DNA from: Alphaproteobacteria bacterium UBA2903
Lineage (GTDB): Bacteria; Pseudomonadota; Alphaproteobacteria; CAAGCB01; CAG-977
Assembly: GCA_002349565.1 (NCBI GenBank)
Contig: DEDN01000027.1
Location: forward strand, 39,669 to 103,668
DNA length: 64,000 nt
Direction of reading: 5' to 3'
Shown here piece by piece: positions 38,110 through 49,460 of the stretch; position 1 is the stretch's first letter, and the number at the start of each line of letters is the position of its first letter. The position numbers and the translations under genes were made by a program. The notes beneath the pieces were generated by a model. The model worked only from the letters and a program-made list of their open reading frames with translations, did no database searches and had not been told where the DNA came from.

Positions 38110-38193
38110 AACGTCGCCGCGGCTATTCTGCGTTTTCTTTCGTCATTATTAACGGCACAGAAAGTGCCTACAACAAAACTTCTCATTTTTAAA

Positions 38194-39579
38194 TCAAAAT
38201 CTGAAATAGATGAACGGATTGTATGTTGAAGCAGCCATTGACGCCACAGCCAAAACAAACAGCAAAACCAGTCCCAAATTGACTAACACCAGCCCTGCCT
38301 TGTTGCGTACAAACAAAATATTTTTGCATACGGGCATAGCACACAACGCCGCAATCACAAAAGCGATAATCTCTATATTGTCAATGTAATAAGCCGTCGT
38401 ATAAGAAATATCGCGACCGCGAACAAATCCGAACATATTTTTCAGATATTCAACAGCATACGACAGCGTGTCCGCGCGAAAAACAACCCACCCGATAACA
38501 ACGACGAAAATCGCGTAAGCATGGTGCAAAAACGATTTTGTTTCATTTTTATGCCAACCCGTCAATTTTTCGACAATAATGAACAAACCGTGCCATAATC
38601 CCCAAACAACAAAAGTCCAACTGGCACCATGCCACACGCCTGTCGCCAGAAAAACAATGAACAAGTTAAGCAAATTACGTTTTTTGCCAACCCGATTTCC
38701 GCCTAAAGGAATGTACAGATATTCCTTAAACCACGTTGACAAAGAAATATGCCATCTGTGCCAAAATTCCGTAATGGATTTTGAAATATAGGGATAGTTG
38801 AAATTTTCCAAAAATTTGAATCCGAAAATCGCTCCCAATCCGATAGCCATATCGGAATACCCGGAAAAATCATAAAACAGTTGAAACGAATAAGCTATTG
38901 CCCCGATCCAAGCCGTCAAAGCATTAAATTGTTCAACCGGTTGAGAAAAAATTTTATCGGCAACCGCGCCCAGAGTGTTCGCTATCAGTATTTTTTTCGC
39001 CAGTCCGATGATAAAGCGTTTTATACCGTACACCGCTTTTTCGCTAGACTCTTCCCGATTTGAAATTTGATCGGCGACATCATGATATTTGACAATCGGT
39101 CCCGCAACCAGTTGAGGAAATAATGTAATGTACAAAGCCAATTTTGCCAAATCCCTCTGCGCCTGTGCTTCACGGCGATACACGTCAATCAGATAAGACA
39201 TTGCTTGAAAAGTATAAAAAGAAATGCCGATAGGCATAACAACGTCAATCAGCGAAATATCCGCTGAACACAGCGCATTAATATTTTCAACAACGAAATT
39301 GAAATATTTAAAATAAAACAAAAAACTTAAATCCGCGCAAATCGTGCATGACAAAATCGACCTTGCTTTTTTGCGGTATTTTTCAATACATAGTGCGCCC
39401 GCCCAATTGATAATGATCGTCGCAATCATTATCGCCAGATAATCGGGTTCGCCCCATGCGTAAAATACAATACTCGCAACAAGCAATACATGATTCTTCA
39501 GCTCGCGGCGCGACAAAAAATACAATGTTGCAACGATCGGCAAAAACAAAAACACAAACGTCATCGATGAAAAAAGCAT
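38194..39579 (-). CDS. MBOAT-family membrane O-acyltransferase (AlgI/DltB-like)
   Basis: A multi-TM protein with the motif FWHRWHISLSTWFKEYLYIPLGGNR. The gene is low in GC. Confidence 0.85.
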   Translation of the reverse strand: MLFSSMTFVFLFLPIVATLYFLSRRELKNHVLLVASIVFYAWGEPDYLAIMIATIIINWAGALCIEKYRKKARSILSCTICADLSFLFYFKYFNFVVENINALCSADISLIDVVMPIGISFYTFQAMSYLIDVYRREAQAQRDLAKLALYITLFPQLVAGPIVKYHDVADQISNREESSEKAVYGIKRFIIGLAKKILIANTLGAVADKIFSQPVEQFNALTAWIGAIAYSFQLFYDFSGYSDMAIGLGAIFGFKFLENFNYPYISKSITEFWHRWHISLSTWFKEYLYIPLGGNRVGKKRNLLNLFIVFLATGVWHGASWTFVVWGLWHGLFIIVEKLTGWHKNETKSFLHHAYAIFVVVIGWVVFRADTLSYAVEYLKNMFGFVRGRDISYTTAYYIDNIEIIAFVIAALCAMPVCKNILFVRNKAGLVLVNLGLVLLFVLAVASMAASTYNPFIYFRF

Positions 39580-39583
39580 GGCA

Positions 39584-41251
39584 TTATTTCCTCATAAAAT
39601 CTGGGACTTTTTGATTTTCAAGATATGGGAGATACCGTTCAACTATTTCAAAAACGATAATATCCGATTGCTTTAAAATTTGTTCATCACTAAGTTTAAA
39701 TTCTCTTCGCCATTCAAAAACACTTTCTCTAAAACACATATAATAATAATCAAGCATAGATTTTGAAAACGAGTCCCTAAGAGAAAACAAATTTATTTTA
39801 TTGTCCTTGTTAACACAGTGAACACTATCTCTGCTTTTTGTATCAACGCAATTGTCGCTTTGTACCGTCAAATGTTTATACTTAATATTTTCATACAAGC
39901 CTTTCCTTGTATAAATCATTGAATTTAAATCTCCTTTCGGATACGAAACGAGTTTGAACTCAACATTTAATGACGGCAATTCTGGAAAATCTTTTTTCAT
40001 TTCATCCCACAAAGCCTGATATCCGATAAACGCTCCGTACTGATTCCAATGAGTATCATTCTTCCAATACAATAATCCGTCTTTTTTCGCCGATAAAAGA
40101 TTGTCCCTCGGATAAATGACGTTAATGTCTGAATTTGATTTTATATAATCTACTAATTGATATGTTCTGCTTAACCTATCATCGTTCAATTTTTTATAAG
40201 CAGTCGAAAAGTATTCTCCATATATTTTATTTTTGTCAGGAGCAATAAATAAATAGAATTTCTTTCTGTTTTTTTTGCAGAAAGAATTAATTTCATCAAG
40301 ATACATTAATATTGAATTAAGCTGCTTTTTATTATATAAAATCTTATTTTGCCAATTTTGAATCCCATTATCAAGTTTCAAAAAAATAAAGCCATCTTTT
40401 CCCATCATAGCTTTGTTATTTTCTATACGACTGTTAATGAAATTTTTAAAAACAGACCATAATGACTGCAGTCTTTTTCTGCCGTTAAATCTGTCATTAA
40501 ACCACGCCTCAAAATCGCGCCCGTATTTCAAATTCATCCCGTTTTTCGTTATCAAAGACGGACGCTTGGCTAACATTCTGTTTTCCGTAACGGATTTGTC
40601 GGCGCGATCGATTTTCGACATTGGAACAAACAGCACGGCACACACAACAATAAGCAACGCAACATCAGCCGCAGGAATGCGCGTTTTGATTTTTAAAATC
40701 ATTCCCGCCAACTGCCACCCCGCCAAACAAGACAGCGCAAAAACGCTGAACAGCAGCAATCCGTCAATTTCAATTCCGTGCTTTAATTTCAACGGTCTTT
40801 TCCAAATAAAATACGGATCCTTTTGCGATGAATTTAATTCCAGTATATCGTTTTCAATCTTGTACGAATCGATTTGATTTGGATGAACGTCTGTTTTTCC
40901 TTGCAGCAAATAAACGGTTTTATCGCCTTTTATTTTCAAATTCTTAATCGTTATATTCCCGGGAACGGTTCCAACATCCAGTCTGAATCTTTCGATATAT
41001 TTCACGGGCAACAGCAGCTTGACCTTTCTATAATCAGAATTCAAAACCGCTTTTTGAGTTACGACCTTATTTCCGTTGAATTTCTCGCCATCCGTTTCCG
41101 TATAAAATACTTGAAACGCAATGGAAGAATCGCCCGTTCCTTTGGCAAGAAATTCCACCTCGATCGTCGAAGTCTTGTATAGCCGCGCGCACAACAAACA
41201 ACATACCGTTGCAAAAAAACAGGCTAAACCTAAACGGGATTTGTTAAGCAT
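39584..41251 (-). CDS. AlgX/AlgJ/DltD-like periplasmic O-acyltransferase partner (DHHW family)
   Basis: A signal anchor followed by the KNDTHWNQYGA (D-x-H-W) motif. The gene lies immediately upstream of the MBOAT gene and is low in GC. Confidence 0.6.
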   Translation of the reverse strand: MLNKSRLGLACFFATVCCLLCARLYKTSTIEVEFLAKGTGDSSIAFQVFYTETDGEKFNGNKVVTQKAVLNSDYRKVKLLLPVKYIERFRLDVGTVPGNITIKNLKIKGDKTVYLLQGKTDVHPNQIDSYKIENDILELNSSQKDPYFIWKRPLKLKHGIEIDGLLLFSVFALSCLAGWQLAGMILKIKTRIPAADVALLIVVCAVLFVPMSKIDRADKSVTENRMLAKRPSLITKNGMNLKYGRDFEAWFNDRFNGRKRLQSLWSVFKNFINSRIENNKAMMGKDGFIFLKLDNGIQNWQNKILYNKKQLNSILMYLDEINSFCKKNRKKFYLFIAPDKNKIYGEYFSTAYKKLNDDRLSRTYQLVDYIKSNSDINVIYPRDNLLSAKKDGLLYWKNDTHWNQYGAFIGYQALWDEMKKDFPELPSLNVEFKLVSYPKGDLNSMIYTRKGLYENIKYKHLTVQSDNCVDTKSRDSVHCVNKDNKINLFSLRDSFSKSMLDYYYMCFRESVFEWRREFKLSDEQILKQSDIIVFEIVERYLPYLENQKVPDFMRK

Positions 41252-41260
41252 ATTTTCTCC

Positions 41261-49157: not shown

Positions 49158-49167
49158 GGGAGGGAGT

Positions 49168-49370
49168 ATTCACCGAACTCCATTACCCAACTAAAAAAGC
49201 CACCCTTTGGGGTGAAATCACATTATGGCGGGAGCGGGATTTATTCGGGGCTGTCGCCCCTCACCCCTGCGGGGCCGCCGTTCCGGCGTTGCCTGCGCTT
49301 CGCTTCGGCTGAACCTGAGAGGTTCATTCACCGAACTCATTACCCAACTAAAAAAGCCACCCTTTGGGGT
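49168..49370. repeat. 46-47-bp direct repeats flanking a ~110-bp head-element copy that contains a degenerate tRNA-fMet 3'-end copy
   Basis: attcaccgaactc(c)attacccaactaaaaaagccaccctttggggtg occurs at 49168-49214 and 49325-49370. The intervening ggcgggagcgggattt...cccctcacccctgcgggg resembles both the tRNA-fMet 3' end (gtgcgggagtgggattt) and the element at 600-678. Confidence 0.6.
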
Positions 49371-49380
49371 GGCTTTTTTA
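49349..49380. terminator. Bidirectional terminator between the recombinase gene and tRNA-fMet
   Basis: aaaaaa-gccaccc-tttg-gggtggc-tttttt. Confidence 0.65.
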
Positions 49381-49382
49381 GT

Positions 49383-49460
49383 TGGGTGCGGGAGTGGGAT
49401 TTGAACCTCACGACCTTCAGGTTATGAGCCTGACGAGCTACCGGACTGCTCCATCCCGCG
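49383..49460 (-). tRNA. tRNA-Met (CAT), initiator type
   Basis: The reverse complement CGCGGGATGGAGCAGTCCGGTAGCTCGTCAGGCTCATAACCTGAAGGTCGTGAGGTTCAAATCCCACTCCCGCACCA closely resembles E. coli tRNA-fMet. It has the C1:A72 mismatch and a GGG/CCC anticodon stem. One bulge lies in the T-stem. Confidence 0.8.

Follow-up and report, generated by a model that had tools for sequence, protein, structure and literature searches.

The 64-kb stretch of DNA analysed here (the window) carries, at 38.1-49.2 kb, an island of low G+C content (GC) in which six minus-strand genes are followed by a small serine recombinase gene. We consider it likely that this locus is a phase-variable and strain-variable glycan operon of an uncultured gut alphaproteobacterium (UBA6347-like), turned ON and OFF by an Mpi-family invertase that flips a promoter segment. 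This reading is built on a short segment between operon and recombinase gene, on the sites that bound it, and on the recurrence of the same arrangement elsewhere.

An invertible segment between inverted recombination sites

The operon and its switch comprise the following features (aa, amino acids):

38194-39579, minus strand: MBOAT membrane O-acyltransferase, 461 aa, last gene of the operon (Pfam PF03062, E=3.6e-36)
39584-41251, minus strand: AlgX/AlgJ/PatB-type partner of the MBOAT protein, 555 aa (Pfam PF16822 ALGX, E=2.4e-10)
41261-42121, minus strand: GT2 glycosyltransferase, 286 aa (Pfam PF00535, E=4e-30), with an 8-nucleotide (nt) overlap with the dead paralogue
42114-42698, minus strand: catalytically dead Mpi-family paralogue, 194 aa (Pfam match to the C-terminal part of the profile and to a helix-turn-helix, HTH)
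42713-47413, minus strand: multidomain glycosyltransferase, 1,566 aa (length as called in other contigs), with GT4 at about residues 292-590 and GT2 at about 635-799
47410-48285, minus strand: RgpF-like protein, 291 aa, first gene after the switch (Pfam PF05045, E=1.8e-25)
48329-48348, no strand: left recombination site, TCAGAAACG-GA-CGTTTGTGA, placed at the inversion boundary between the window and contig L092
48340-48476, no strand: invertible segment between the core dinucleotides (~130 bp), reversed in L092
48428-48456, minus strand: sigma70-like promoter candidate TTGCTA-N17-TATAAA, with 9/12 consensus matches the best in the segment
48472-48483, no strand: right recombination site AAACG-TC-CCTTT, core 48477-48478, inverted relative to the left site (TC is GA on the other strand)
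48549-49157, plus strand: Mpi-family small serine DNA invertase, 202 aa (Pfam Resolvase, E=5e-31, plus HTH)

Contigs of the same species were collected by exact-protein look-ups in metagenome assemblies. Look-ups by the ABC exporter beside the island or by Sel1 gave only island-bearing contigs, and TrmFO as bait gave island-less and variant strains; a metagenome pattern scan for either left junction added L097 as the sole extra locus. In L092, window positions 48333-48483 align to 2194-2044 on the opposite strand at 98% identity, inside a 7-kb collinear alignment, and direct reading places the visibly reversed stretch at 48345-48472. The window orientation is shared by L084, L085, L097, L100, L101 and L110, and the reverse is found in L092 only. 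L097 has the single-nucleotide polymorphisms (SNPs) that flank the switch of L092 on its upstream side (ctttagcgtcc, caacaggg and gtcaacaacc), yet its segment lies in the window orientation. Both orientations of the segment thus occur in natural populations.

The left site consists of half-sites at 48333-48337 and 48340-48344 (AAACG-GA-CGTTT) around the core GA at 48338-48339. Both sites have near-palindromic half-sites around one common asymmetric core dinucleotide and lie in inverted orientation, which is the geometry that serine invertases require. The site motif has three matches in the 64 kb, two of them the switch sites; the third, AAACG-TT-CCTTT, lies at 58106-58117. The site core occurs a third time, inverted, at 48358-48367 just inside the invertible segment (CGTCCGTTTC), and this copy makes a 10-bp stem with the left site (48335-48367). 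The same layout is seen in the unrelated lineage L117 (~7835-7875), and this copy could be an accessory binding site or a barrier to read-through. The promoter candidate points towards the glycan operon in the window and towards the invertase gene in L092.

The recombinase next to the segment scores 274.6 bits against NF009949, the 'master DNA invertase Mpi family' equivalog (cutoff 272), and its best match in the PDB is the Gin invertase (4m6f, E=7e-13). Its catalytic motif is intact (YGYCRCSTDKQ...SRLGRS), and it is 47% identical to the invertases adjoining the L103 and L105 switches. Neither a Phage_integrase domain nor a large-serine C-terminal domain was found at the island edge, where this protein of 202-aa invertase type is the sole intact recombinase. 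A preliminary description of this DNA was right to place an intact serine recombinase here, but the role of island integrase that it suggested does not suit an Mpi-family protein beside a segment found in both orientations. From the adjacency of invertase and switch across lineages, we infer that this enzyme catalyses the flip.

A dead invertase paralogue and the recurrence of the switch in other lineages

Segments of the same kind are inverted in three other lineages. Stretches of 119-121 bp are reversed at 99-100% identity between L102 and L104, between L105 and L106 and between L107 and L109, in each case directly upstream of a dead-paralogue gene in otherwise collinear contigs. The same type of site borders them, with a -10-like box at a distance of 3-5 nt from the site nearer the operon, and all three lineages have a -35/-10-like pair at the operon-proximal end of the segment.

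The surroundings of the dead paralogue were compared in six further lineages. The order of active invertase, ~200-bp gap, dead paralogue and glycan genes accompanies the dead paralogues P0034 (L102-104), P0023 (L105-106), P0028 (L113-116) and P0041 (L117), and the glycan genes behind them include DegT, GT2, FdtA, KAS III/ACP, NeuB, GT92, hexose dehydratase and others. Around P0005 (L107-109), the switch and the dead paralogue lead a different glycan operon with no adjacent invertase, and P0002 (L112) stands at the operon end on a short contig; in most lineages sampled the dead paralogue is the first gene after the switch. The active invertases are 47-84% identical to one another and make up an orthologous group of their own, as do the dead paralogues (43-62%); between the two groups the identity is about 30%. 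In the window, the genes for the RgpF-like and 1,566-aa proteins sit between the switch and the dead paralogue, a different gene order that makes the window architecture a rearranged variant.

Two further observations concern these lineages. In L105, L106, L113 and L114 (positions 1-7800 / 1-9200), which represent two lineages, the module lies directly downstream of type IV secretion genes (VirB8, VirB9/CagX, VirB10/TrbI, VirB11 and VirD4/TraG), and the switched glycan operon may there ride on or abut a conjugative element. The active invertase gene has, at its 3' end (~9722), a tract that is A9 in L102 and A8 in L103, and the length of the called reading frame varies with it (242, 217 or 206 aa); in the longer calls the frame enters the invertible segment. 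The tract could reflect a sequencing error or slipped-strand variation.

The dead paralogue of the window is 32% identical to the neighbouring invertase. Six residues are crucial in Tn3 resolvase, namely Y6, R8, S10, D36, R68 and R71 (Olorunniji and Stark, PMC2794168). The equivalents of Y6, R8, S10, R68 and R71 are F5, Q7, Q9, R60 and K63 here, so that four of the six crucial residues are replaced (Y6, R8, S10 and R71), the D36 equivalent being left unscored in this comparison. F5, Q7 and K63 are nearly invariant across 22 members of the family. A database search returned 48 homologues at 39-97% identity, all of about 190-200 aa, with a common N-terminus, MIYAFVQD, and the motif LLLEKTFRLGKD. 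The ratio of non-synonymous to synonymous substitution rates (dN/dS) is 0.28-0.39, and by this measure the dead paralogue is under purifying selection. NF009949 is its nearest NCBIfam model, at 84.8 bits and far below the cutoff.

The AlphaFold model of the dead paralogue has a predicted local distance difference test score (pLDDT) of 86.1, and the top Foldseek matches are full-length Tn3 and gamma-delta resolvases (probability 1.0). As modelled, the protein keeps the full resolvase fold with E-helix, GRP arm and HTH. The label 'degenerate resolvase' given to it earlier holds for the lost catalytic residues but not for decay, given a conserved family, a dN/dS of about 0.3 and a confident full fold. 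Its recognition helix reads TLATF and that of the invertase TLHRF, a difference that argues against identical site specificity of the two proteins. The open-access literature that was searched yielded no description of this dead paralogue, nor of any catalytically inactive serine-recombinase partner of an invertase.

One family member, P0003 (alignment A2), is a chimera: its N-terminal half is the window-type dead paralogue, identical to that of P0001, and its C-terminal half is identical to the P0005 type, with the crossover at the conserved LLLEKTFRLAKDV segment. On this account the leader gene may be a homologous-recombination anchor for the swapping of glycan cassettes.

The glycan operon, its composition and its loss

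GC falls abruptly past the stop codon of the ABC exporter at 38109. The composition profile gives 29-45% over 38.0-41.2 kb and 27-33% over 44.5-47.0 kb, against a mean of 53% in the window outside the island and 55-59% in the neighbouring genes. Gene by gene, the values are 40.5% (MBOAT), 35.0% (AlgX-like), 49.7% (GT2), 52.1% (resolvase-like dead paralogue), 36.8% overall (1,566-aa gene), 47.5% (RgpF-like) and 44.3% (recombinase). Transcription on the minus strand runs from the RgpF-like gene through the 1,566-aa GT4+GT2, resolvase-like, GT2 and ALGX-domain genes to MBOAT. Read in window coordinates, the junctions within the operon are +4, +9, -8, +14 and -4 nt, so short or overlapping that the six genes are coupled. 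Both the abrupt change to a low-GC mosaic and the six coupled minus-strand genes had been reported in the preliminary description; the GC profile and per-gene values bear out the former, the listing of open reading frames (ORFs) and the Pfam matches the latter.

The MBOAT protein finds its best NCBIfam match in DltB, at 168 bits and below the cutoff of 375, and is 45-46% identical in amino-acid sequence to proteins of Clostridia and Lachnospiraceae loci. Its ALGX-domain partner has an N-terminal signal or transmembrane region, a DTHW motif and an RDSFS motif. The best PDB match of the partner is Bacillus cereus PatB1 (5v8d, E=2.2e-7), with AlgJ (4o8v) a weak match; an N-terminal region of about 280 aa is without a match. 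The earlier assignment to a DHHW-family AlgX/AlgJ-like partner is sound as to the AlgX-type match and the DTHW motif, but the Pfam model 'DHHW family' gave no match. That the island encodes glycosyltransferases together with an MBOAT/AlgX-type O-acyltransferase pair, also claimed earlier, is confirmed by PF03062, PF16822, the PatB1 match and the DTHW and RDSFS motifs. The MBOAT protein and its periplasmic AlgX/PatB-like partner most likely form a pair that O-acylates a glycan.

The 286-aa GT2 is 49% identical to a GT2 of L113 that likewise follows a dead paralogue with an 8-nt overlap. The near-host GC of the dead paralogue and its GT2 makes this pair look like a native core onto which low-GC modules were grafted. 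The 1,566-aa gene is itself a mosaic, with 44.8% GC over residues 1-140, 30.4% over residues 141-970 (23.9% at third codon positions) and 43.8% over residues 971-1566. The C-terminal 767 aa and the N-terminal 300 aa of its product have no Pfam or PDB sequence match. The methyltransferase domain once assigned to this protein accordingly finds no such match in the C-terminal 767 aa, and the predicted O-methylation of the glycan is left without domain support. The RgpF-like protein covers only positions 267-503 of the 503 in its profile and has no NCBIfam match, and the window ORFs that were scanned include no rml gene. The rhamnose specificity predicted earlier for the glycan drew no support from these analyses.

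In the seven genes of the island, Pfam and NCBIfam identified neither an initiating transferase, a flippase or a polymerase nor any Wzm/Wzt or sugar-nucleotide gene. The most economical reading of this inventory is that the operon is an accessory module, predicted to extend an existing surface polysaccharide and then to O-acylate it. The ABC pair beside the island, half-transporters of the ABC_membrane type, stays in place in island-deleted strains.

The loss of the island and its tRNA-proximal edge involve four further features:

38109-38117, plus strand: left end-point of the deletion, AAACGTCGC, read from the junction, overlapping the ABC exporter stop codon and holding a half-site and core, AAACG-TC
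48943-48951, plus strand: right end-point of the deletion, AAATGTCGC, read from the junction, inside the invertase gene
49168-49371, no strand: tRNA-linked repeat, with direct repeats DR1 (49168-49214) and DR2 (49326-49371), 97.9% identical over 47 columns
49383-49460, minus strand: tRNA-Met(CAT) (ARAGORN/Rfam), of initiator type by the C1/A72 mismatch read from the sequence

The island is absent from seven contigs of the same species (L087-L091, L093 and L094), all of which have window position 38117 joined to 48943. At the junction the stop region of the ABC exporter, tgAAACGTCGC, is fused to ...ttaacaaattgaaaagcgacgg, in the last third of the recombinase gene. Since the 3' third of that gene is kept in the island-less strains, the event was a deletion and no precise excision: the island-less strains have lost 10.8 kb, and the loss leaves the invertase gene truncated. 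A comparison with other strains, as the preliminary description had suggested, did yield island-less contigs, but no precise empty site. SNPs around the junction are mosaic, and the one nearest its left side is common to all island-less contigs.

The deletion end-points are a 9-bp repeat, AAA(C/T)GTCGC, which alone can explain the deletion. The same invertase might also have caused the 10.8-kb loss, by acting on quasi-sites AAACG-TC at 38110 and AAATG-TC at 48944. Cin recombines quasi-sites and so gives deletions, which is one reading of the 38117/48943 junction. AAACGTC is common, with 37 copies in the 64 kb, and its presence at the junction is therefore only suggestive of invertase involvement.

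L092 represents a third allele. It is collinear with the window from 46999 rightwards and has a different GT2-like module of 37.5% GC to the left, and this breakpoint falls exactly where the GC of the window drops to 30%. Frameshifts called in its RgpF-like gene were discounted because the scaffold has N runs. With the seven island-less contigs and the L092 cassette, the strain-variable, mosaic nature of the island that had been proposed is borne out.

The initiator tRNA-Met reported beside the island is indeed present; it is a chromosomal neighbour, and a role as integration target is not supported. DR2 is half of the terminator hairpin of the tRNA, and no copy of the direct repeat was found at 38.1 kb. 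DR1, DR2 and the intervening unit are all kept in the island-less strains, with both copies on the tRNA side of the recombinase; as they persist there, the repeats are no att (attachment) sites of the island. The direct repeats of 46-47 bp noted earlier thus exist, but not in the role proposed for them. The 160-bp unit between them matches RtT RNA (RF00391) over its full length at 30.1 bits, below the gathering score of 45, and was read as a tRNA-linked repeat; in the Rfam scan of the window, only tRNAs reached threshold. Two-piece transfer-messenger RNA and signal recognition particle RNA were dropped as identities for the unit, with no ARAGORN or Rfam support. At the end of the stretch 49215-49325, GAATAAATCCCGCTCCCGCCA is similar to the T-arm and the 3' acceptor end of the tRNA. 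A second allele of the DR1 region, with a compensated hairpin (CACTCTaaAGAGTG), is common to L087 (island-less) and L092 (island-bearing).

Elsewhere the window carries ordinary chromosomal genes (SHMT, ThrC, NadE, an AcrAB-TolC-type pump, a copper ATPase, SecD, TrmFO, squalene synthases and SmpB). In a single scan of genome contigs, the closest genomic relatives of the ABC exporter are in metagenome-assembled genomes (MAGs) of uncultured Alphaproteobacteria (UBA6347, 95%; others, 81-84%). The sister-species loci L004-L007 (ABC exporter 81-95% identical) have only the ABC pair in common with the window at the DNA and protein levels and were dropped as empty-site controls for that reason; the neighbourhoods of the pair in these MAGs are unrelated. 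The ABC half-transporter genes (34529-38109) are 60-69% identical in amino-acid sequence to genes of Lachnospiraceae, Ruminococcus and Clostridia, which suggests that the pair moved between phyla. Four Firmicutes loci (L033, L071, L073 and L082) have an MBOAT homologue (45-46% identity) no more than about 3 kb away from the ABC pair.

Upstream of the ABC pair, the region 25821-34501 holds a giant ORF (29492-34501; 1,669 aa, no Pfam match) coupled to an autotransporter gene (25821-29507). The gene called at its place in other strains of the species encodes 1,663, 1,720, 2,703, 2,708 or 2,908 aa, and some strains lose homology to the window between ~32.6 and 34.4 kb, in the giant-ORF region. This ORF is probably a variable surface protein. 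At 16691-16924 (minus strand), tblastn gave a match of 54% identity over 78 aa to a 145-aa zinc-ribbon/HTH_23 ORF that lies ~8 kb upstream of the L107 switch; the match may be a fragment of a transposase-like protein or a regulator.

Proposed mechanism, alternatives and related systems

We propose that the 202-aa Mpi-family invertase would flip the segment between inverted sites of the AAACG-NN-CGTTT type (cores 48338-39 and 48477-78). In the window orientation the promoter would read leftwards into the operon, from the RgpF-like gene to MBOAT, and the glycan would be ON; in the L092 orientation it would read towards the invertase gene, and the glycan would be OFF. When expressed, the operon enzymes would extend the existing surface polysaccharide, with O-acylation by the MBOAT and AlgX/PatB-like pair. 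The dead paralogue, which would be made only in the ON state, may bind the switch sites or the invertase and so bias or lock the orientation, or cross-regulate other loci. In the rearranged layout of the window, the OFF orientation may drive the active invertase, which would make the toggle asymmetric.

The dead paralogue is predicted to be a product of the ON state alone, kept its DNA-binding and dimerization parts and lost its chemistry. On these grounds we favour for it, with fairly low confidence, a function in modulating inversion or in regulating other loci. We offer only tentatively the more specific suggestion that it binds AAACG-NN-CGTTT sites or heterodimerizes with the invertase, either locking or biasing the orientation or silencing the switches of other glycan loci.

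Several points weigh against the proposal of an invertible promoter. A stricter promoter/terminator scan of 48100-49520 found 0 promoters. The candidate TTGCTA-N17-TATAAA fails that scan because position 6 of its -10 box is A, and we therefore assign it as the active operon promoter by inference; it also lies at the far end of the segment, unlike its counterparts in the other lineages. The reverse orientation in the species of the window comes from one contig, L092, a scaffold with N gaps elsewhere, and is seen at contig level. The layout of the window differs from that of the other lineages, with the invertase divergent from the operon and the dead paralogue in mid-operon; L107 has no adjacent invertase, and the L112 contig is too short to tell. 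The link from invertase to flip to expression is a prediction from sequence, as is the glycan substrate, in a host that is uncultured.

Some of these points would suit another account, in which the L092 orientation is a fixed strain difference or an assembly artefact and the recombinase a relic or an enzyme for another target. Only one of about seven independent same-species contigs is reversed, and the evidence is at the level of contigs, in this case a scaffold with N runs. The reversal is nevertheless bounded exactly by inverted sites with a common core dinucleotide, L097 combines the upstream flanking SNPs of L092 with the other orientation, and equally precise reversals at 99-100% identity recur in three other lineages; assemblers, moreover, do not invert a 128-bp segment inside unique sequence. 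Exact, site-bounded reversals in four lineages thus make an artefact or a fixed polymorphism quite improbable. The segment may instead flip but carry a terminator or attenuator hairpin, or the promoter of the invertase itself, for autoregulation or control of read-through. The empty strict scan, the additional inverted site copy with its 10-bp stem (here and in L117) and a best promoter candidate that faces the invertase gene in the L092 orientation speak for this possibility. It must be set against the presence of a sigma70-like element with 9/12 matches, the -35/-10-like pairs at the operon-proximal end in three other lineages and the lack of any other promoter-like site between 48285 and the switch, and we judge it unlikely. 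We also have doubts, of about the same degree, that the MBOAT/AlgX-like pair acts on peptidoglycan, by O-acetylation of the PatA/PatB type, and on no variable surface polysaccharide. Known pairs of MBOAT and SGNH/AlgX-like proteins do include peptidoglycan O-acetyltransferases, as with PatA/PatB in Neisseria and Campylobacter. The best solved relative here, however, is B. cereus PatB1, which acetylates a secondary cell-wall polysaccharide and is not known to target peptidoglycan; the pair is co-transcribed, as coupled genes, with four glycosyltransferase domains, and it is dispensable, being missing from many strains.

Least probable are two other accounts of the recombinase-family proteins. 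One holds that the ORF at 42114-42698 is a decaying, functionless pseudogene of an older switch, in keeping with its lost catalytic residues and its mid-operon position in the window, away from the switch. Against it stand 48 full-length homologues, the most distant at 39% identity, that carry the same substitutions and strongly conserved motifs, a dN/dS of 0.28-0.39, a confident fold prediction and the translational coupling of the ORF to its neighbours, which together leave this account very improbable. The other is the model of the preliminary description, that an island integrated beside tRNA-fMet with the serine recombinase as its integrase and the direct repeats as att sites. The foreign composition, the recombinase and tRNA at one edge, the tRNA-3'-like fragment between the repeats and the absence of the island from some strains would all accord with such a history, to which we attach scant probability. 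The recombinase is a 202-aa Mpi-family invertase without the C-terminal domain of large serine integrases; both repeat copies lie between recombinase and tRNA and are kept in island-less strains, where the 3' third of the recombinase gene is fused to the ABC exporter stop; and in other lineages the orthologous invertases have different chromosomal surroundings, in which no tRNA is close by. The model thus fails on three defining tests, in that there is no integrase at the edge, no att repeats flank the island and there is no precise empty site. Compared with tRNA-linked islands that have tyrosine or large serine integrases, the locus is alike in its atypical composition, strain variability and tRNA neighbour with a partial tRNA-3' duplication, and unlike in having no integrase, no flanking att repeats and an imprecise deletion for an empty site.

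The invertible promoter that we prefer would work like, and by the features compared here would belong with, the Mpi-type invertible promoters of polysaccharide loci (PMC4747536, PMC10403206). As with Mpi of Bacteroides fragilis, the invertase is a small serine enzyme of the same NCBIfam equivalog family, and a short segment that bears a promoter (here a candidate) and is framed by inverted repeats immediately precedes a polysaccharide operon. Switches without an adjacent invertase, such as that of L107, imply action in trans, as for Mpi. The repeat consensus of Mpi that Coyne et al. reportedly gave in 2003, ARACGTWCGT, resembles the AAACG-NN-CGT found here. The differences are that the host is an alphaproteobacterium (~53% GC) with candidate promoter elements of sigma70 type, not Bacteroides type; that the invertase is usually encoded beside each switch; and that the window operon, with accessory transferases and an acyltransferase pair, is incomplete as a capsule locus. 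The first genes of switched operons in Bacteroides are the regulators UpxY and UpxZ (PMC10403206), whereas the leader gene here is a dead invertase paralogue, neither NusG-like UpxY nor UpxZ.

With Hin, Gin, Cin and Pin, the enzymes share fold and catalytic motif, Gin being the best solved relative, and the sites share a near-palindromic organization of ~20 bp, an asymmetric 2-bp core and inverted orientation. Unlike those systems, the present one gave no evidence of a Fis-bound enhancer, is aimed at promoters of glycan operons and not at flagellin or tail-fibre genes, and has a dead paralogue associated with it. The Escherichia coli fim switch (FimB/FimE) is similar in that a promoter is inverted and the expression of a recombinase-family protein is tied to orientation, as would be the case here. 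The fim recombinases differ in being of the tyrosine type and both catalytically active; feedback in the present system is a prediction. In the PatA1/PatB1, AlgI/AlgJ/AlgX and DltB/DltD systems of O-acylation, an MBOAT protein is likewise paired with an AlgX/SGNH-like partner with D-x-H and Ser motifs; the scores here fall below family-specific cutoffs (DltB, 168 versus 375), and the partner has its extra N-terminal region of ~280 aa. What is new in the present system is the host group, the usual encoding of the invertase in cis, the site family and, above all, the dead paralogue inside the switched operon.

The locus illustrates that a recombinase found beside a tRNA where a low-GC segment ends is not necessarily an integrase. 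The variation of surface glycans by invertible promoters is a hallmark of gut Bacteroidales and shapes their interactions with phages and with host immunity. The same Mpi-type logic would now extend, from natural populations of four lineages, to uncultured gut Alphaproteobacteria, for which there is almost no experimental genetics. If the proposed role of the dead paralogue is true, a protein derived from a recombinase would here serve as the functional analogue of UpxZ or FimE, conferring feedback memory or the display of one glycan at a time. A dead paralogue that modulates inversion would give recombinase switches a simple, portable form of memory or mutual exclusivity, which, if true, would be of interest for phase-variation biology and for synthetic recombinase circuits.

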